Part shown: piece by piece, positions 3,085 to 61,000 of the stretch
Layout: every line of letters begins with the position of its first letter
How positions within the stretch are numbered: the stretch's first letter is position 1
IMG/VR virus record: IMGVR_UViG_3300003375_000013
Location: 64,001 to 128,000 of that record
Origin: a virus
Strand: one strand, 5' to 3'
DNA: 64,000 bases
Translations under genes and position numbers: made by a program
The notes under the pieces: model-generated
Database searches by the model: none
What the model was told of the DNA's origin: nothing
The model's input: only the letters and a program-made list of their open reading frames with translations

Positions 3085-3103
3085 AAGATAGTTGAAGTAC
3101 AAT

Positions 3104-3174
3104 GCGGGATTAGTTTAATGGTAAAACTACAGATTTCCAATCTGTTGTTATCAGTTCGATTCTGATATTCCGCT
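3104..3174 (+). tRNA. tRNA-Gly(TCC), no encoded CCA
   Basis: ACAGA-TTTCCAA-TCTGT; TTCGATT; discriminator T followed by CAT. Confidence 0.9.
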
Positions 3175-3194
3175 CATTTTACTTAGATTTGTGA

Positions 3195-3266
3195 GCAGGA
3201 TTAATTCAGCGGTAGAATGTCTCGTTGCCAACGAGAATGCCATCGGTTCGATCCCGATATCCTGCT
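3195..3266 (+). tRNA. tRNA-Gly(GCC), no encoded CCA, acceptor stem extended by 12 perfect bp
   Basis: TCTCG-TTGCCAA-CGAGA; flanks TTAGATTTGTGA (3183-3194) / TCACAAATCTAA (3266-3277). Confidence 0.9.
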
Positions 3267-3284
3267 CACAAATCTAAACAGAGT

Positions 3285-3349
3285 ACTCCTTATATGACAG
3301 TTGAACAAGGTCATATAAGGGAAGGACAGTGTTCAACCTGTCCGAGAGT
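3285..3349 (+). ncRNA. Unclassified two-hairpin RNA with complementary (kissing) loops
   Basis: 11-bp hairpin 3288-3320 and 6-bp hairpin 3324-3343; loop sequences GTTGAACA and TGTTCAAC are exact reverse complements. Confidence 0.6.
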
Positions 3350-3354
3350 TTTTA

Positions 3355-3432
3355 GGGGGATGGGTCTGCTCGGAGTGGACACCTGCTTTGCAAGCAGGAA
3401 TCAGAACGGTTCGAATCCGTTATTCTCCACCA
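3355..3432 (+). tRNA. tRNA-Ala(TGC)
   Basis: CCTGC-TTTGCAA-GCAGG; G3:U70 identity pair; CCA. Confidence 0.93.
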
Positions 3433-3437
3433 ATTAG

Positions 3438-3466
3438 TTGACATTAAATACAATATCATGTATAAT
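3438..3466 (+). promoter_or_regulatory. Consensus sigma70 promoter
   Basis: TTGACA-17 nt-TATAAT. Confidence 0.9.
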
Positions 3467-3485
3467 GTTTACATAGTAAGTCTGT

Positions 3486-3564
3486 TGCGGAGTAGGGGAG
3501 TCTGGTCGTCCCCGCTAGTCTCATAAGCTAGAGATCGTTGGTTCAAATCCTTCCTCCGCTACCA
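3486..3564 (+). tRNA. tRNA-Met(CAT), initiator-like body
   Basis: CTAGT-CTCATAA-GCTAG; T1:T72 mismatch; TTCAAAT T loop; CCA. Confidence 0.85.
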
Positions 3565-3584
3565 TTTTATAACAAGGAGTTAAC

Positions 3585-3803
3585 ATGAAAGCAGTTTTAG
3601 CAATCGTTGTAGCATCACTAGCACTTACTGGATGTGTTGTTGCTGATCCATATTATGTTCAGCCTCGTCCTGTATATGTTCAACCTGCACCAGTTTATGT
3701 GCAACCTAGGCCTGTATATGTAGCTCCTCCTGTTCGCTGTACGTATGTACAACAATGGAATGGTTACACAAGACAGTATCAAAATGTTCGTGTTTGTAGA
3801 TAA
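3585..3803 (+). CDS. Small proline-rich lipoprotein (PXPV-like repeats)
   Basis: Signal peptide with LTGC lipobox; YVQPRPV/YVQPAPV repeats; AAGGAG SD. Confidence 0.7.
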   Translation: MKAVLAIVVASLALTGCVVADPYYVQPRPVYVQPAPVYVQPRPVYVAPPVRCTYVQQWNGYTRQYQNVRVCR

Positions 3804-3811
3804 GGAATAAA

Positions 3812-4039
3812 ATGTTTATCAAAGTATCTAATGCAGCAAAAGATTTTCTTCATAATCCCTTGTACATCAAGGCTGATGTAATTCTAACAGTATACGAAGG
3901 TACTAGTGTTAGAAATGAAGGAACCCCTGATGAATATCAGGAACATGTGACTTTTATCTTTAGTCCTACTCATGGTACTTGGGAAGTTCTAGATAGAGCC
4001 GAGGATGTATACAAGCAATTAGTACAATTAGGTTTATAG
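3812..4039 (+). CDS. Hypothetical protein
   Basis: ORF with AAGGA SD. Confidence 0.7.
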   Translation: MFIKVSNAAKDFLHNPLYIKADVILTVYEGTSVRNEGTPDEYQEHVTFIFSPTHGTWEVLDRAEDVYKQLVQLGL

Positions 4040-4053
4040 TAAAGCAGTTTATT

Positions 4054-4132
4054 CTCCGGTTCGCCTAATCTGGTTATGGCACTTGCTTTGGGAGCAAGAA
4101 TAATGTGAGTTCAAATCCCACACTGGAGACCA
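4054..4132 (+). tRNA. tRNA-Pro(TGG)
   Basis: CTTGC-TTTGGGA-GCAAG; CCA. Confidence 0.93.
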
Positions 4133-4159
4133 TTAATGTAGTTAAAATTTAGGAAATAT

Positions 4160-4414
4160 ATGTCAATTAAAACAGCAGCTAGCCTTATCGATATCAATGT
4201 TTGCGTTAATCAAACAGGCAATAAAAGATATGATTTAGTATTAATCGCAGCAGCGAGAATGCGTGAACTGAAGTTTCATAGGATGGGAACAGATAAGATT
4301 ACACGATGGTCAGAAGTATTACTTGAAATTCAGGAAGGTCGCATTGATCCAACTGAATATTTGAGAAAAATTGAAGCAGTACGCCCTAAAAAACAAAGTA
4401 GGAAGTACAAATAG
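4160..4414 (+). CDS. rpoZ: RNA polymerase omega subunit-like protein
   Basis: GNKRYDLVLIAAARMREL and VLLEIQEGRI match the two conserved helices of RpoZ. Confidence 0.7.
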   Translation: MSIKTAASLIDINVCVNQTGNKRYDLVLIAAARMRELKFHRMGTDKITRWSEVLLEIQEGRIDPTEYLRKIEAVRPKKQSRKYK

Positions 4415-4420
4415 TTTAGT

Positions 4421-4496
4421 TGGAGATTAGCCAAGCTGGTAAGGCAACGGATTTTGATTCCGTCATACACAGGTTCGAACCCTGTATCTCCTGCCA
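4421..4496 (+). tRNA. tRNA-Gln(TTG)
   Basis: ACGGA-TTTTGAT-TCCGT; CCA; T1:T72 mismatch. Confidence 0.93.
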
Positions 4497-4533
4497 AGAA
4501 ATCAATAAATATATGTACTATTAGGAATATTCC

Positions 4534-5154
4534 ATGAAATTTAAAGAGCTATTTGAAATGCCAACTTATAACCCAAAAGAGTTACCTACAACAGATTTTA
4601 AGGTTCATTTAGTGAGCGTAGATACACTTGATCGTGATTATACCTTACTGGAAGCCATACAAGTAGGAGATAAAAAAATTATTGCGGGCTTAAAAAAGGA
4701 TAGATCAATTGCCATAATTGGACCGGCTGTTGTTCGCAATGATGGGAAAACTTCGGTAGAAGTCATGGCTCAAATTGAATTTCACGAAGGCACAGTTAGT
4801 GGCGAAGCTGGCGGTAAAGCGACACTTCAAATTTCTTTAGTAGAAGCTGCCGATAAAGTGCGAGGTTTCGGATACGGATATCAATTATATAAGATGATAT
4901 TAAATCGTGGATTCACAATCGTAAGTGATAATGTACAATATGTAGGTGGCAAAGAACTGTGGTTAAAGATTATTCGCAAAAGTGCTGCTGATAAGCATAA
5001 TGTGTTTATTATGCAACAAGGCAAATACATGCGTGATGAAGCTGGAAATCCAATAGTATTTGATGGTGTTAATATTTCACCAGAAGATATCTGGAGTACA
5101 GATAAGAAAAGTGAAAAGCATTTTTACACTTTACTAGTAGCAAAAAATATCTAA
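4534..5154 (+). CDS. Putative virion-packaged GNAT-fold protein
   Basis: ATAAATA at 4505-4511; N-terminus MKFKELFEMP; VRGFGYGYQLY...SDNVQYVGGKELW acetyl-CoA-binding-like motif. Confidence 0.55.
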   Translation: MKFKELFEMPTYNPKELPTTDFKVHLVSVDTLDRDYTLLEAIQVGDKKIIAGLKKDRSIAIIGPAVVRNDGKTSVEVMAQIEFHEGTVSGEAGGKATLQISLVEAADKVRGFGYGYQLYKMILNRGFTIVSDNVQYVGGKELWLKIIRKSAADKHNVFIMQQGKYMRDEAGNPIVFDGVNISPEDIWSTDKKSEKHFYTLLVAKNI

Positions 5155-5160
5155 TTTCAC

Positions 5161-5236
5161 GGATCGTTAGCTCAGCGGTAGCAGCGGCGCCCTTACAAGG
5201 CGTAGGTCGTAGGTTCAATCCCTACACGATCCACCA
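5161..5236 (+). tRNA. tRNA-Val(TAC)
   Basis: GCGCC-CTTACAA-GGCGT; CCA. Confidence 0.93.
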
Positions 5237-5242
5237 ATCAAT

Positions 5243-5318
5243 GTCAACTTAGCTGATGTGGTCATAGCAGTAGCTTGAAGAGCTTCGGAAAGTGGTTCGA
5301 TTCCACTAGTTGACACCA
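5243..5318 (+). tRNA. tRNA-Phe(GAA)
   Basis: GTAGC-TTGAAGA-GCTTC; CCA. Confidence 0.88.
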
Positions 5319-5342
5319 ATCAATGGTGACTGTGATAATAGG

Positions 5343-5415
5343 GGTGACCATAGTGTAAAATAGGCACCTAACTCTGTGAAAGTTATAGTCTGAGTGAGAC
5401 TTCTCAGTGGTCACC
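5343..5415 (+). tRNA. tRNA-His(GTG)-like, aberrant T loop, no CCA, inside a 26-27 bp helix (5325-5433)
   Basis: G-1/C73; TAACT-CTGTGAA-AGTTA; T arm CTGAG-TGAGACTT-CTCAG; ends CCT; flanks pair with G-U wobbles. Confidence 0.75.
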
Positions 5416-6243
5416 CCTATTGTCATAGTCATCAACTTCACGAACAAGTTGTTCGTAGGTTATTGAAGATTTACTGTGTTTTCTTGAGTTTTTATTCTGT
5501 GGCATCAGATCGCAATTTACTGGATGACGAATGTAGTATTCATCGTAGTTATTGAGCATAGCTTCACTGACTGATACACGATGATCACGAGACAATCCGT
5601 TCATATTTATACCGCGTTTATTATTACCACCGGCATTATAGAACCCAACCCGTGTTAGTTCATTTAAATCGAATAGGTCAGGATAGTGAAACACATTGAA
5701 CTTGAAGTAATATCTGGCCCGGTTTAGTGATTTATGTAAATGTATGTGTTCTTTACAGTAACCTATTTTATATCTGTTCACGAACTTAATTTTACAATGA
5801 CGACAAGTGTTTAGAATGAGTTTAGAGTGAGGTGCGAGTTCTTGTTTAGGCACTCGTCTATCTGCCCAAGTCTTCTTGACTTTTTCGTATAAGGCGTAGT
5901 CTCTTTCGTTGTTGTTATGAGTTGCGCTGCAACTTTGAGAACAGAATGTCAAGTGTCGTTTTTCGTATGATAGTTCCACTGAACATGCTTTGCACTGCTT
6001 AGGAGTTGTTAGATAAACCGTCCTAGAGTATTCTCTTTTACGCTTATGAGCATCAATAGCGCCTTGGTTACCACCACCTTTTTTGCCGCCATTTTTAGCA
6101 TCAAGAATAAGTTGAGGGTCACGAGCTGGACCATATTTTAGTTCATAGTCACGAGTATTAGTGCCATGATTTTTTAAATGAATTCCTGATATTTGGCCGT
6201 TGAAATCACGATGGCATATAGCACAGTTTATTATTTTATACAT
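5404..6243 (-). CDS. HNH homing endonuclease with Zn-finger motifs
   Basis: Several CxxC; SRDHRVSV...HPVNCDLMPQNKNSRK; TAAATA 5 nt upstream of ATG. Confidence 0.75.
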   Translation of the reverse strand: MYKIINCAICHRDFNGQISGIHLKNHGTNTRDYELKYGPARDPQLILDAKNGGKKGGGNQGAIDAHKRKREYSRTVYLTTPKQCKACSVELSYEKRHLTFCSQSCSATHNNNERDYALYEKVKKTWADRRVPKQELAPHSKLILNTCRHCKIKFVNRYKIGYCKEHIHLHKSLNRARYYFKFNVFHYPDLFDLNELTRVGFYNAGGNNKRGINMNGLSRDHRVSVSEAMLNNYDEYYIRHPVNCDLMPQNKNSRKHSKSSITYEQLVREVDDYDNRGDH

Positions 6244-6290
6244 ATACTTATTTAGTCTAACTTGTAAGTTCAGTAAGTATTTGTCACCCC

Positions 6291-6321
6291 AGTTGACATT
6301 TAATTGAAAGTCAACTATAAT
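6291..6321 (+). promoter_or_regulatory. Consensus sigma70 promoter with operator-like inverted repeat
   Basis: TTGACA(6293)-17-TATAAT(6316); AGTTGAC-N12-GTCAACT. Confidence 0.85.
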
Positions 6322-6632: not shown

Positions 6633-6686
6633 AGCAAGAAACTTTTAATTTCGAGGCTGTGGGATCATGCCCCATCTCTCCTACCA
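6610..6686 (+). tRNA. tRNA-Lys(TTT), atypical T loop
   Basis: AGAAA-CTTTTAA-TTTCG (A27:G43 mismatch); T loop ATCATGC; CCA. Confidence 0.85.
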
Positions 6687-6769
6687 TTATTATATTGAAG
6701 CACATTTAAGTAGGCATGCCAACGCTAGGTCTTATCGGACATAGCCAGAGTGTGTTTCAATATAATAAT
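6686..6769 (+). ncRNA. Unclassified long-stem structured RNA between tRNA-Lys and tRNA-Arg
   Basis: About 22-bp stem 6686-6707/6748-6769 with 3 G-U pairs; internal hairpin GCTA-G-GTC-TTATCG-GAC-A-TAGC. Confidence 0.55.
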
Positions 6770-6844
6770 CCGGCCATAGTTAAATGGATATAACTAGGGA
6801 TTTCTACTCCCTTATTGTGGGTTCGATTCCTGCTGGCCGGACCA
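6770..6844 (+). tRNA. tRNA-Arg(TCT)
   Basis: AGGGA-TTTCTAC-TCCCT; CCA. Confidence 0.9.
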
Positions 6845-6845
6845 T

Positions 6846-6922
6846 GGCGATGTAGCTCAGTTGGTTAGAGCAGGTGACTCATATTCACAAGGTCGGTGGT
6901 TCGAATCCACTCTTCGCTACCA
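6846..6922 (+). tRNA. tRNA-CAT (elongator Met or Ile2)
   Basis: GGTGA-CTCATAT-TCACA; body resembles bacterial Ile2; CCA. Confidence 0.85.
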
Positions 6923-55000: not shown

Positions 55001-58000
55001 AAGAAATTAATAGTCTCTGTAGATGGATCATATGAATAATTTGTTCCTACGATTTGTAATACGTTATTTAAATACACAACAGTATTATAAGAACTAGTAT
55101 TAGTATATAAAGACCCAATATTGTAAGTTTGTGTAACTCCATCACCAGTAAAATATAAATCACTAGTAGGAAATGACACTACGTTTGGTATTGCTGCTTT
55201 ATTAATTACTTCCGCAAATCCAGCTATAGTATTGTTTGGTGCCAGAGGAACTGTTACAATACTATTATTAATTCTTATTGAGCTGTATGGCTCCAACAAT
55301 GGGTTAGCTATAGTTGTTGTTATAACTCCGTATAAACGAGATTGATTAGCCTGACGGTCAACGGATCCTGCTTCATCAATATAAGTGCTATCAAACGGTG
55401 CTCCTATATACACACTACAACTTAGAGGACAAGTGTCAATTGCTGCCCCAAAATTTGCAGATAGATTTTCTGTACTACTAACTAATTCTTGAATTTGAAC
55501 AAATTGATTTGTACCAAATTCAATTATATCGCCATAGTTAAATGTTATATTAGTAAATGTAACAGTATTATCAGTTACACTATATTGTCCATTTGTTGAT
55601 TGATCAGTTGATAATAAAAATACTTCATTTACATTCACTGATATAGGAGAATTAATAGTTCCAGCAACATCATATGTCATTTGAGAAGGATTAGAAACTA
55701 TGAAACGAATCACACTTCTGTCAAACACATATACAACACCTGCGTTATCGATGCCATTACTAGTAGCATTAGGAGCACCTATGAATATTTGTGATCCATC
55801 TGTAGTAGTTGACACACTTGCTCCAAAATTATCACCTTCTAATGAATTAGGTGATGTAATATTAGTTACATATTGCCAATACGTCGGAGTTGTTACCGTA
55901 ATAACAGCATTTTGTGGAGGAACTGTTGAAAATGTCAATTCAGTTGTTGTTGGATCAAATGTATAGTCAAAGTATGGTCGTTGAACCTCTTGATTCACAA
56001 CAACAGTAAATGTTTCAATAGATGAAGCGTTGTATAATGTGGTATTAAGAGCAAATACACTTGTTGTGTATACTCCTGTGCCAGAAACTGTAAATCCAAA
56101 CAATTCTCCGTTGGTTAATACACTGGCAACAGTTATCTCTAAGTCATTAGTAGGAGTTGTGCCTCCTAATTGTGTTCCTCTGACCAATAACGTATCTCCT
56201 ACGCTATAATTTTGTCCACCTGCAGTAATACTTCCTGTATATGTGCCACGAGAGTTATAAATTGTAAATACAGCGCCATAACCAGTGCCAGAAGTTGAAT
56301 TTTGTTGAATTCCAGTATACTTCTGCACATCAAGCACACTTGAAGTATTCCGTGTTATCAATAGAGTTTGGTTATTGCCGGGAGTATTTGTTAATATTAC
56401 ATTATTTTGATTTAATGTATAATCCGTGCCAGATGTTAGTACATCATTATCTAATGTAACGACTAATTGATCAGGATACAAGTAATTAACTTGTATCGTA
56501 TCTGAGTAATTATATGCTAATACGTCAAATCTAGTAGAATATGAAACTGATTGATCCTCTACTGTTATTTTTTCATATGCATAGACAACATTATTGCCAG
56601 GAGCACCGACATACATCCATTGTTCATCTTTGCTAATTGCTCCCGATGTTCCAAAATTTATTGGATCAAAATTTTGATCTGGCGGAACTAATAATTGAGT
56701 GATACTGAAAGAATTTACATTAGGATTTCTGTAAATTACAGCAGCATATCCCATGTTAGATAAACTAGTATTAGCTCCTGCTATTGCCCAATCAGAATTT
56801 CCAAATGATACTATATTACCAAAATTACTAGTGTCAATTGCACCTAATGCCAACGAATCATTATATTGATAGTATGATACTACGCCTCTAAAATAAGTTA
56901 AAATTCTGCTAGTGCCAGGTGCTCCAACTAATGCGGCCACCCCAGACTCTGCCTGTGCTACACTTGCGCCATATCTAGCAGTAGCAGTTAACCCAGGAGT
57001 AATTACTAACTCTGTATCAAATACATTTTGTTTTTCTACCGTTTCCCAGTGTCCATTTCCATCATTATCAACCCATGCTTTTGCCCCTGGTATTAAATTG
57101 TTTACATAAAGCAATGTTGCAATATCACTTGCTTGTGATACTCTGGCATCTTGAAGATGAAACGCTAATCCACTTCCTGTTATTGTGGATACATTATAAT
57201 TGTTGAATGTAAATGCAACAATTATAGTTGTTGGGGTAGGAACTGCTAAAACACGATATACTCCGTTAACTTCATCGTTAAAATATTTAACAATTATTAA
57301 ATCAGCAACAGATAGTCCATGATATGCGTTAAATTGAACTATACTAGTACCATTGAGATTATTAGATACTTGAGTAATATTTCCAGGAACTCCTGCTACT
57401 CGGTATACTCCCCAATCATGTGTATTTACCTTAGCAATCCATATATAAGTGCCAATTCCGATACTATCAATATTCTGATTAATAGTAGTTGGATCTTTAA
57501 GGCTAAAAACAGTAATATCAACATCTTCTAAACATACAAAGCCAGCTGATGGCAACGCAGATGGCAAACTGCCATTCTCATATACGGTAGGAAGAATGTT
57601 TGTGCTAGTAATATTAAAACTTTCTTTCCATAAATTATCTAGATACAAAGTTTGATTAGCCTGACTAGTTTCCTCTGGATTAATAATCTGAATAGTTGAA
57701 GGATTATATGACAACTTTGCTTCGTTTAATTGAATTTCGAAAAAACTTTTATTTGCCTGCGCTCCATATGTACCAGATAGTACTCCCCAATTTTCATATA
57801 TATTATAATCGCCACTTTCTTTCTTGTTAAGATTAGCTAAGTTAAATATTTCAGCAGCATGAACAGTGCCTTTTGTACCAATAAATTGTTGGTATAACTG
57901 AACTTGAGTAACTCCGTTCAAGTTCATATCTGTCATATATTGCCTAGGTCTAAATCCAATTAATCCAAACGCAAATAAATCATTATCACTTGTTAAGTTA

Positions 58001-61000
58001 GCTTGATATACATTATATGTATCAACTAATTGATTAGCTTTGTTAGCTAAGTTAGGCAATAATCCATTATCAATAGCTTGATAATCACTCTTAATCCAAT
58101 TTGCGTAGTTGAATACTTCTGATGGATCTATAATAGTCAGTGATTGCCAGTATGTATTTTTATATAATACCATTTCACCCTTAGTGTATTTGGTATAAGG
58201 CTGCCACTGTTTTACATTGTTTAAATTAAGTATGAATCCCTGTGCATTAAGCTGCCCATCCCATTCAGTTGAAGTTGACGCAATCAAACTTAATCGAACT
58301 TGTCTAGCAGCAGTAATAGGATCATAAATTAAATCATTGAACTGTGTTGTATTGTTCAACACAATCATATCTTCATAATTTGTAAACTTTAATGTCAGAA
58401 AATTAATTGTTTGACCCGTTGTTGTAGTAACAGAAAATAGATTATTAATTCTATTAACTACCATGTTACTAACATCTAGAGCAAAACGATTTTGATCTAA
58501 TAACATATTTTCAGGCGTTACACTAGCAATAGTATCTACGATAGATACAGGACGACTAGCCACAATTGTGGTAGCACTAGGGTTTAAATTAATCATTGTA
58601 TTAGGTTGCCATCCTTGGGCTCCAAAATACAAGAATTCCTGTGCCATCTGTTTCCAATCTAATGTATAACCATTAAATCGATCAGAAAATATTAAACCTT
58701 GACTTTCTAAATAAGCACCATAACTTAATAAAAAGTCACACACACTTGCCGGACTAGTAAACACGTATCCATATGGAACTTGCCTGATGTTGTCGGTATA
58801 CTGTGACGGAATTTGTACAATAGTGTTACCAGCGGTAAGAGTTTGATAAGCTCCAACTGGACTACTTACTAATGTCTCAAAATAAGGCTGAACATTGCTA
58901 TATCCATATACACCATATCCAATTCCTCCTGTGCCCAGTTGTTCAACTTGAACAATTACAGAACTATATGTAATCTGACCAAATGGTTGATTTTTATAAA
59001 ACAATAATTCGTAACTTGAAGCTGGAATTTCTAAACTATTATTAGTAGAATTTGGTCCACCTCTTTCAGTAAACAATTGTACGTATGCTGGATCACTAAA
59101 TGATGCCATACGATAGCATAAACGAACATCTAGATTTGCTAGTGCTTCTGTTAATGTTTTAGTACTATTAACTCCTGACCGTTGATTATAATCAACAATC
59201 CAGTTAATATAACTTGCTTTACTTACACCATCGCCGTATACTTGAACGCCGGATGCATCTAAACGATAACGATTGTTTAGCAAATACTGACCCAACGTAG
59301 TATTATAACGATATAAATCTCTATCAGCAAACAATGAGAAAAATTGTGCTGGTTTAGTAAGAGCTAATAAACGCATCATTGCAAATGGATAAGAACTGCT
59401 ATTCCACCATGATGCTTCTACTGGGCCGCCATCACCAGCTGCCCATGATTGTTGAAATCCATATGGATCATTCAATCCAACTATACAATCTATAGGAGAT
59501 AATAGTTCACCCTCTAGTCCTGCTGGAATAATTTTGCTTAACCCAGCCCGAATATATTCAGGTAAAATGTATGGACCCGCTGGATCACCTACAATACCGG
59601 CCTCTAAATCATCCCAGAGTACAGTATTGCCTGATGTATATGGCGCTGGTCCGTAACGTGTAATCCACCATGCTGGTTCTTCGGTAAATCCTACCATTTC
59701 CCATGGGGTCGAGTTAGGAGTTTCAGTATCGTAAAAATAACGATAGATTCCACGCCAGTTGCCTTGAAGGAATGCCGCTTGATCAATACGATTAGATGCC
59801 TGGCTATAGTTGTATGTAAATGGATTATTGGCAATGTAATCTTGCGTTGTGTAATTTAATTTATTTTGACCAACCCATGACAAAAAGTCCTCACTCATTA
59901 TCTGATTGACTTCTTGATATGTATATGGCGTTTTGCGGAAATATCCTGGCAATAACGCGGTAGTTTGAGCAGGATAAAAATCCGGATTTACTTGGTCAGT
60001 AGATAACGGAATTGGATTATCATCAGTTTTGATATTATCGTATATACGTTTTTCAAATTCAAATAATACTTGATCACGAATGTCACCAAAAGCAATAGTA
60101 ATTGACCCATCATGGCCTTGAATTACCACGGTTGGCTCTGAATAAGTGTCATCTACGTAGACAGAAGGAGTGTATTTAGGATATAGACCCATTTTGCTAG
60201 GTGTATTTGGACACCAGCTAGCCACTGTGGTAGGATATTCATTAATTGTAACAACATCGCCAATGTGTAATGGAATCAATATAGTCAATTTAGCAGCATC
60301 AGTAGATACTGTATACTCAGTTCCTCTTAGTAAAAGTACATTATTGACATATACTAATAATCCAAGATAGTTACTTGATTTGAAATCATATACTTGATTT
60401 GTATTAAAGATATTTGTAGTTATTGGGTTAACTACTGTTGTCGATGATGTATAATTAGTTCCAACTGGCAACATATCTGACCAATAAGATGAGTCAGAAC
60501 TTGTTAAGCTTTTTGTAATGTTAGAAATAACCAAATCAAGAATTTGAGGCACAGTCTCAGATCCATTAAGATCTAATCTAGTGACTTCGGTCAATAATTT
60601 ATTCTTGTACTTGATATATTCTCTGCTATTATACTCCAATGAAGCAAATATATCATAGTTAATATTTCGTAAGAAAAATCCAGCAAGCGTCAATGGTGAT
60701 GATTGTTGTAATATTAACTGACCATAAGGAACAATGTTACCTAGGTCACGAGTGTTATTACGTCCATTAATAGGACCATTAAGATCAACTAAATTTTCAC
60801 ATATTGTGGCGTAATGTTGACGAACTGTCCCCAAACTAAACTGTTTGCTATTACCATTAAACGGATTATTTTCTAAGTTTTTTGGAACTTCATAGAAACC
60901 GTATGCACTTACTTGCTGACTATATGCAAGTACCTCAATAATGTCACCAAACACATATCCAGTACCATTTAATGTAATAGTAGATACATTAGTTGTGGTA

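Follow-up and report, generated by a model that had tools for sequence, protein, structure and literature searches.

The window analysed here is a stretch of 64,000 nucleotides (nt), bases 64001-128000 of the 177-kilobase (kb) IMG/VR phage record IMGVR_UViG_3300003375_000013 (36.8% G+C, estimated to be 51% complete). It carries an array of transfer RNA (tRNA) genes, among which tRNA-Gly(TCC), tRNA-Gly(GCC) and tRNA-His(GUG) have no encoded CCA and are flanked by leader and trailer sequences that can pair with each other. In the latter two units this pairing prolongs the acceptor stem into a long helix, referred to below as the stalk. Default ARAGORN identified 24 tRNA genes in the record, 19 of them within the window, and addition of the tRNA-His, found at a relaxed threshold, brings the window to 20, one fewer than was counted in an earlier reading of the same DNA made without database searches (the sequence-only reading, which gave 21). 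The flanks of every gene were listed. N73-CCA is encoded by 22 of the 24 ARAGORN tRNAs of the record and the two tRNA-Gly genes end in U73-C-A. As the sequence-only reading had reported, CCA is absent in the window from Gly-TCC, Gly-GCC and His only, every remaining tRNA ending in N73-CCA. ARAGORN found no second tRNA-His or tRNA-Gly in the 177-kb record, so the CCA-less units fill gaps in its tRNA set. For the CCA-encoding tRNAs of this phage genome, the run of paired flank bases never exceeds 5.

The tRNA-Gly(GCC) is located on the plus strand at 3195-3267 (body 3195-3265, U73 at 3266, C74 at 3267); it is called by ARAGORN and scores 65.4 bits with the Rfam tRNA model. The leader strand of its stalk (3183-3194) is the perfect complement of the trailer strand (3266-3277), as the sequence-only reading had noticed, and these 12 extension pairs form 19 continuous base pairs (bp) together with the acceptor stem. 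The fold z-score is -7.4, and a run of at least 12 pairs was reached at a frequency of 0.0008 in 5000 random placements in the phage's own genome. A relative of 87-97% identity, L001, keeps all three CCA-less units; its single change within the Gly-GCC helix is an A-to-G in the trailer, which converts an A-U into a G-U and keeps the pair. The other phage contig L003 (2514-2588) harbors an identical Gly-GCC body with an encoded U-CCA and unrelated flanks that do not pair. Thus, the helix belongs to the unit and not to the tRNA sequence, and it seems that a tRNA body can move, or persist, without its flanks.

The tRNA-His(GUG), also on the plus strand, spans 5343-5417 and comprises G-1 (5343), the body (5344-5414), C73 (5415) and C74-C75 (5416-5417). 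The leader strand of its stalk (5324-5342) and the trailer strand (5418-5434) are part of a 28-bp helix, 5324-5351/5407-5434, which includes the acceptor stem. The extension itself amounts to 19-20 pairs, three or four of them G-U, with a fold z-score of -8.5 and a random frequency of at most 0.0002 in the phage's own genome. The pairing of 5325-5342 with 5416-5433 and its three G-U wobbles had been correctly described by the sequence-only reading, although the tRNA frame assumed there was off by one, +1 being 5344 and C73 being 5415. The spacer ATCAAT (5319-5324, plus strand) lies between the CCA of tRNA-Phe and the His stalk, and the same 6-mer lies between Val and Phe. The CCA-ATCAAT spacer pointed out earlier is thus present ahead of both Phe and the His unit, and the relatives L001 and L008 keep the ATCAAT though the Phe gene there differs in sequence.

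This tRNA-His has an abnormal T-loop of 8 nt and a U at position 76 (5418), so that its end reads C73-C-C-U. It falls below the cloverleaf family threshold, being missed by default ARAGORN and by Rfam RF00005 at E values up to 1; ARAGORN at -ps85 calls it at 5344-5417. The only Rfam matches of the His unit were to microRNA hairpin models; these were weak, stayed below the threshold and mirror the length of the hairpin. A pattern of its D-arm and anticodon arm retrieved 73 viral loci with 50 distinct tRNA-His sequences. This family includes canonical members (L007, with a canonical T-arm) as well as others with odd T-loops, and among close relatives the T-stem and the anticodon stem covary. We read the unit as a divergent yet genuine tRNA-His.

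The third unit, tRNA-Gly(TCC) (3095-3184, plus strand; body 3104-3173, U73-C74 at 3174-3175), is of a different kind. Its flanks 3095-3103 and 3176-3184 pair weakly, with 8 of 9 pairs formed after a 2-nt bulge of unpaired T3174 and C3175, a random frequency of about 0.014 and a fold z-score of -2.0. The bulge and the pairing claimed for it earlier do exist; the count of 9 out of 10 pairs was wrong. The helix is irregular, falls short of 11 bp and has a geometry unlike that of the stalks described below. Its leader TTGAAGTACAAT resembles the 5' strand of long-stem RNA cassettes repeated in this phage. The Gly-GCC stalk overlaps the Gly-TCC trailer, and cutting of that neighboring stalk may simply release Gly-TCC.

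Occurrence and covariation of stalked tRNA genes

Two sets of loci were searched for CCA-less tRNAs with paired flanks. The first had been selected solely for carrying the tRNA-His family. It contains 872 distinct tRNAs, 840 of which encode CCA; a flank run of at least 10 was found in 1 of these 840, and 15 of about 17 truly CCA-less tRNAs have an extension of 8-16 bp that starts at the -1:73 pair. The second set was enlarged, in part by pattern selection, to 1296 distinct phage tRNAs, in which an extension of at least 10 bp is found in 50 of 102 CCA-less tRNAs as against 7 of 1194 CCA-encoding ones (Fisher p ~1e-53). The distinct class of phage tRNA precursors proposed in the sequence-only reading is therefore recurrent across phages, and complementary flanks are far from equally common in CCA-encoding tRNAs. 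Stalked members have the identities His, Asn, Met, Pro, Gln, Gly, Arg, Ile and Thr, to which a cultured Aeromonas phage adds Asp. CCA loss and the helix are not strictly coupled: in a few His genes and one Ile gene the helix includes an encoded CCA, and a 411-kb viral contig (L107) has about 20 tRNAs that end in N73-C followed by A or T, with neither CCA nor a flank helix.

No close cultured-phage relative was found for the window region or for the His unit. Stalked units are nevertheless present in cultured phages. Aeromonas phage avDM4 (OP380596.1) has three of them: a tRNA-His with an encoded CCA, whose ninth pair from the predicted cut defined below is U-G, a CCA-less tRNA-Asp with U-G at the same position, and a tRNA-Asn whose CCA is fully paired. 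The complete genome of Alcaligenes phage vB_Af_QDWS595 (OK149171.2, about 56186-56289; L259:1501-1604) harbors a stalked tRNA-Pro without CCA, in which AAAG follows C74 and pairs 9 and 10 are U-G and U-A, respectively. In its GenBank record this gene and the adjoining tRNAs called by ARAGORN (Leu, Met, Glu, Asn, Gly) are all unannotated. CCA-less tRNAs with a 13-bp acceptor extension of the CTTTG/CAAAG type were also observed in six bacterial contigs (L150, L205, L238, L241, L248, L252), of which L150 and L205 are assemblies of Patescibacteria, the candidate phyla radiation (CPR).

The pairing is maintained by compensatory change. Viral and metagenome scans gave 13 distinct sequences of CCA-less His units, all ending C-C-C-U, with at least 7 different stalk sequences, all of which are paired over at least 12 bp. 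In an alignment of six such units from three lineages, columns 9-22/95-108 are paired nearly throughout, the two unpaired cells adjoining the tRNA, and 7 of the 9 outer extension pairs change on both sides. The observed covariation values were reached by none of 500 shuffles, and slid registers fell to 35-46% pairing. RNAalifold independently predicted the stalk in seven tRNA-Pro units, again with compensatory changes; covariation, which the sequence-only reading had put forward as the check to be made, is thus found in both His and Pro stalks. Counted in fixed-length windows, 52 distinct helices contain 567 Watson-Crick pairs, 51 G-U pairs, no A-C and 21 other mismatches. Because a G-U on the tRNA-sense strand is an A-C on the other strand, the 51 to 0 ratio indicates that selection acts on the sense-strand RNA and not on a DNA inverted repeat, as the earlier reading had supposed from the wobbles of the His unit.

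Position pattern of the stalks and a proposed maturation route

The stalks were compared in a frame that was fixed before the sequences were inspected, namely the mature 5' end with a 2-nt 3' overhang, which places the predicted cuts between -1 and +1 and after position 74. For tRNA-His both predicted cuts were set one base further out, since nucleotide -1 is kept. Pairs are given as trailer-leader and numbered from the predicted cut. Among the 52 helices, position 1 is A-U or U-A in 96%, position 2 is A-U in 88%, position 3 is A-U or U-A in 98% (G-C once) and position 4 is G-C in 56%, these four positions being partly selected by the search pattern. Further out, C-G is found at position 7 in 50%, a U-G wobble with U on the trailer at position 9 in 56% (29/52; C-G in 25%), and a U-A at position 10 in 54%. 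All helices (100%) are paired as far as position 9; the paired share is 83% at the next position and drops to 40-58% over positions 11-14. Position 74 is C in 50 of the 52 members, and the commonest trailer after it is AAAG, equal to the proximal box of T7. At position 75, A or U is present in 36 of the 37 non-His members and C in 15 of 15 His members, whose position 76 is U (12) or A (3). The wobble is located at -11/83 in non-His members versus -12/84 in all 13 distinct CCA-less His sequences, so that the pattern of the His stalks is displaced outward by one base.

The two stalks of the window can be read in the same frame. That of tRNA-His, with predicted cuts at 5342/5343 and 5417/5418, extends 17 bp beyond the cut and begins with U-A, A-U, U-A and U-A, followed by C-G at position 7, A-U at 8, U-G at 9 (U5426-G5332) and A-U at 10. 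That of tRNA-Gly(GCC), with predicted cuts at 3194/3195 and 3267/3268 that would leave U73-C74, begins with A-U, C-G, A-U and A-U, has C-G at position 7 and ends at position 10; its 10 bp beyond the cut become 11 bp in the relatives L001 and L094.

This pattern recalls the substrate rules of Escherichia coli ribonuclease (RNase) III. With a minimal substrate derived from phage T7, the shortest reactive helix was 11 bp (PMC1540722; reviewed in PMC3867540). The proximal box reads, towards the scissile bond, G-C, A-U or U-A, A-U, A-U or U-A; a G-C at its position 2 blocks binding and a G-C beside the bond blocks catalysis (PMC1540722). The distal box consists of a U-A and a 'stringently' required U-G, whose reversal costs 50-fold and whose replacement by A-U costs more than 30-fold (PMC1540722). 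In the numbering of that paper, box position 2 is 9:30 and the 5' product has 6 nt (PMC1540722). Of the window units, His comes closest to these rules: its predicted proximal box contains no forbidden pair, but also no G-C at box position 1, and its wobble at position 9 is followed by A-U in place of U-A. The Gly-GCC unit has the geometry expected of the cut, but obeys the sequence rules only in part and should be a weaker site by the E. coli rules.

We consider it probable that the paired flanks of tRNA-His, tRNA-Gly(GCC) and at least 50 other phage tRNAs form a stalk at which the precursor is processed by a bacterial RNase III, in all likelihood that of the host. RNase III leaves a 5' phosphate and a 3' hydroxyl, and CCA-adding enzymes complete N73-C and N73-CC ends. 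In the proposed route, RNase III would cut both strands with a 2-nt stagger exactly at the tRNA boundary: the leader between -1 and +1, or in tRNA-His between -2 and -1, which would spare the extra 5' nucleotide, and the trailer after C74, or in His after C75. The mature 5'-phosphate end would thus be made without RNase P, and the 3' end N73-C (C73-C-C in His) would be completed by the host CCA-adding enzyme. Since an A-U or U-A is required beside the cut and a C75 would put a G-C there, ordinary tRNAs of this kind could not encode CCA. Since the helix is continuous in both His and non-His units and is nevertheless shifted by one base in His, the cut itself would define the 5' end and would have to spare nucleotide -1. 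The route would also explain the length of the stalk, 10-11 bp from the cut, and the conserved wobble one helical turn away. From this agreement between stalks and rules we infer which enzyme would cut, where precisely it would do so and that RNase P would not be needed. An RNase III-like cut followed by CCA addition was one of the two fates suggested in the sequence-only reading, and the sequence rules favor it (PMC1540722, PMC3867540). The wider proposition is that RNase P is bypassed for some of the tRNAs of many phages, and perhaps of certain ultra-small bacteria, with a host RNase III making the final 5' end, the extra nucleotide of tRNA-His included, a CCA-adding enzyme completing the 3' end and the rules of RNase III barring CCA; we regard it as evenly balanced.

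Several observations weigh against this reading. About half of the 52 helices were found with a pattern fixing CTTTG/CAAAG, which is why positions 1-4 are partly selected. Positions 5 and outward are free of any such selection, positions 1 and 3 are likewise A/U only in members found without the pattern, and chance matches to it that lack a tRNA acceptor stem, which serve as an internal control, show no pairing past the selected bases. In the 28-nt product hairpin of the T7 site muR1.1, the canonical U-G is presumably located nine pairs from the cut, its U being on the strand that leads away from the cut. This placement agrees with the numbering of PMC1540722 and with the hairpin sequence printed in PMC10359600, and if so placed, the U-G of the phage stalks would have the position and orientation of that in muR1.1. 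Distal-box preferences of RNase III vary between species (PMC3074117), so that the E. coli rules may not be those of the host. Of the window units, Gly-GCC has a C-G as its second pair and an A-U as its ninth, a pair that E. coli RNase III reportedly excludes, and its helix reaches no more than 10 bp beyond the cut; Gly-TCC does not fit the pattern at all. On the tRNA side, G1-C72 adjoins the 5' cut and could slow it. Stalked tRNA-His genes of several lineages (L007, L079, L081, L088, L095, L260) have U or C at -1, mismatched to C73, and their predicted product would carry a non-G extra 5' nucleotide in place of G-1. Finally, C74 is kept in the helix-less tRNAs of L107, so there can be other reasons for its retention.

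The last point, and the partial obedience of the window Gly-GCC to the sequence rules, would also suit another role of the stalk, in which RNase III or another double-strand nuclease merely opens or separates the precursor within it, and RNase P and 3' exonucleases make the true ends. Opening followed by trimming is the usual role of RNase III stems, as in bacterial ribosomal RNA (rRNA) (PMC3867540), and RNase III releases the tRNA metY from the metY-nusA-infB transcript (as cited in PMC5371410). What such opening leaves unexplained is why the whole pattern, with the wobble and the helix end, lies one base further out in His, why C75 is lost in non-His units and retained in His, and why the A/U-only positions start right after 74 (75 in His). 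We hold this account to be unlikely. A still smaller chance is given to the stalk being a clamp in place of a cutting site, which would delay RNase P and exonucleases as the timing switch raised in the sequence-only reading, or aid the folding of odd tRNAs in a long transcript. The tRNA-His of the window, with its 8-nt T-loop, would be such an odd tRNA, and leader pairing with the 3' end is an antideterminant that slows RNase P, two extra pairs costing about 10-fold (PMC10731613). Helices of 12-19 bp, however, would block RNase P and not delay it, and a clamp needs no A/U-only positions, no fixed U-G one turn away, no length of 10-11 bp and no shift in His.

Alternatively, the flanks could be the DNA-level ends of small mobile tRNA cassettes, or remnants of an older tRNA-His split by the neighboring minus-strand gene. 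In favor of this, the Gly-GCC body recurs unchanged between quite unlike flanks in another phage, genomes of Patescibacteria contain similar stalks, and the His leader, GGTGAC...TAGG, is loosely like the 5' part of the tRNA itself, with GTCACCCCA at 6283-6291. A strand-blind repeat, on the other hand, would not give 51 G-U against 0 A-C, which places selection on the tRNA-sense strand alone, and the helices differ between lineages by compensatory change and do not form one repeat family. With strand-specific G-U and covarying flanks specific to each lineage, a mobile cassette with terminal inverted repeats was rejected as the identity of the units, as was an older split tRNA-His, the resemblance of the leader being confined to the window's lineage and absent in other His lineages. 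Both versions are improbable, although mobility and RNA processing are not mutually exclusive. The least credible of all the accounts is that the units stay unprocessed and uncharged as decoys for tRNA-targeting defence nucleases, a role that the sequence-only reading had also considered. The stalked identities include His, Asn, Asp, Met, Arg and Pro, and some of these tRNAs are known targets of anticodon nucleases. The role fits poorly with units that fill gaps in the tRNA set of the 177-kb record, where no other tRNA-His or tRNA-Gly exists, whose discriminator bases match each identity and whose 3' nucleotides needed for CCA repair are conserved. The right discriminator for each amino acid, the kept 3' nucleotides and the register shift of His point to maturation into working tRNAs.

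Surroundings of the units in the phage genome

The His unit is followed by a convergent gene of 279 amino acids on the minus strand (5404-6243; PHROG 23051, function unknown). This gene is conserved, and its last ten codons (5404-5433) run antisense to the 3' portion of the His unit. Such an overlap is not found throughout: in contig L042 the His unit is followed by another tRNA. A candidate promoter at 5310-5339 (TTGACA-18-GATAAT) was rejected because transcription would start inside the tRNA, and because the Phe acceptor stem supplies its -35 element, which relatives do not conserve. Elsewhere inside the tRNA array, three promoters match the sigma-70 consensus perfectly (TTGACA-17-TATAAT), at 2960-2988, 3438-3466 and 6293-6321. 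The one at 2960-2988 lies just upstream of Leu(TAA)-Gly-Gly, and a terminator-like hairpin followed by a T run (3324-3343) lies downstream of these three genes. The array also contains an 84-amino-acid open reading frame (4160-4414) between tRNA-Pro and tRNA-Gln, with a weak match to RNA polymerase omega/Rpb6 (Pfam E = 4e-4, below the cut-off), and a homing endonuclease-like open reading frame on the minus strand (1312-2028; PHROG 314, E = 2e-14).

Outside the window, a permuted two-piece transfer-messenger RNA (tmRNA) is encoded at 55278-55620 of the record (G000; L010:3278-3620), with 108.9 bits for Rfam tmRNA_permuted and 91.7 bits for beta_tmRNA; this betaproteobacterial type hints at a betaproteobacterium as the host. 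Five long-stem RNA cassettes were observed at G000 60039-60774, upstream of the window, and at window positions 6686-6769. They have in common a basal helix, ACCATATTGAAGTACATT.../...GTGTATTTCAATATGGT, and carry differing heads of 37-76 nt, the first with a canonical T-arm, none of which matched Rfam. In four of the five, a U-G wobble and then a U-A occur 8 pairs below the top of the helix, resembling an RNase III distal box. The identity of a bacterial Y RNA (YrlA) was rejected for the three CCA-less units, which gave no match; the sole weak YrlA match corresponds to tRNA-Arg/Met at 6790-6906, and no TROVE-domain gene was found in the 177 kb of this record, which is 51% complete. Likewise, no Pfam match to an RNase III, a CCA-adding enzyme or a Ro protein was found in the record or in three related fragments, all of which are incomplete.

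Comparison with known systems and significance

Several components of the proposed route are already known: the RNase III stems of rRNA, the RNase III sites of T7 and the CCA-less tRNAs of T4. The stalks share with the sites of T7 early RNA (R1.1 and muR1.1; PMC1540722, PMC3867540) an 11-bp turn from the cut, the AAAG/CUUU proximal box, and a likewise oriented U-G followed by a U-A some 9-10 bp away from it, the cut with a 2-nt overhang being assumed for the stalks. The T7 sites differ in lying between mRNAs, often with internal loops and single cuts. Beyond the predicted cut in a stalk lies the stack of the tRNA acceptor and T-arm, and the predicted products are mature tRNA ends. In the processing stems of 16S and 23S rRNA, the 5' and 3' flanks of a stable RNA likewise pair into a long RNase III helix, but extra nucleotides are left there for other nucleases, whereas the register of the phage stalks suggests final ends bar CCA completion.

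The CCA-less tRNAs of phage T4 (Pro, Ser, Ile, Gln) arise from dimeric precursors and undergo 3' trimming and host CCA addition before RNase P acts. As in the stalked units, CCA is not encoded, though it is in the host genes, and the host CCA-adding enzyme is needed, as it would be for the stalked units. The T4 tRNAs used as a control have no leader-trailer helix, with a best flank match of 4-5 pairs at any offset; the flanks of the stalked units are fully paired and not single-stranded as in T4-type precursors. In E. coli, RNase III was reportedly described by Regnier and Grunberg-Manago in 1989 to cleave downstream of the tRNA metY in the metY-nusA-infB transcript. There, too, it helps to release a tRNA from a longer transcript, but the cut lies in a separate downstream hairpin, the acceptor is not extended and the tRNA ends are not formed by the cut. 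Eukaryotic and engineered pre-tRNAs with leader-trailer pairing (PMC10731613; the RNase P riboswitch of PMC7897497) resemble the stalked units in that an extended acceptor hinders RNase P; they differ in having few pairs, usually with a mismatch at -1, and in still being RNase P substrates (PMC10731613, PMC7897497). Literature searches found no paper in which acceptor extensions of the RNase III type are described for tRNA genes. The novelty would thus lie in the combination, a putative RNase III-type site exactly on the tRNA boundary that would account for the missing CCA.

The 5' ends of tRNAs are almost universally credited to RNase P. If the proposed route is correct, RNase III and the CCA-adding enzyme would constitute a second natural route to tRNAs and a new maturation pathway, and scattered phage tRNA genes would be without CCA for a reason. 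Expression of stalked tRNAs would then require the rnc gene of the host, and the host range could be restricted as a result. For annotation, stalked tRNA genes are missed or given wrong ends, as with the tRNA-His of the window and the tRNA-Pro of vB_Af_QDWS595. The stalk also suggests a compact design for freeing tRNAs from long transcripts.

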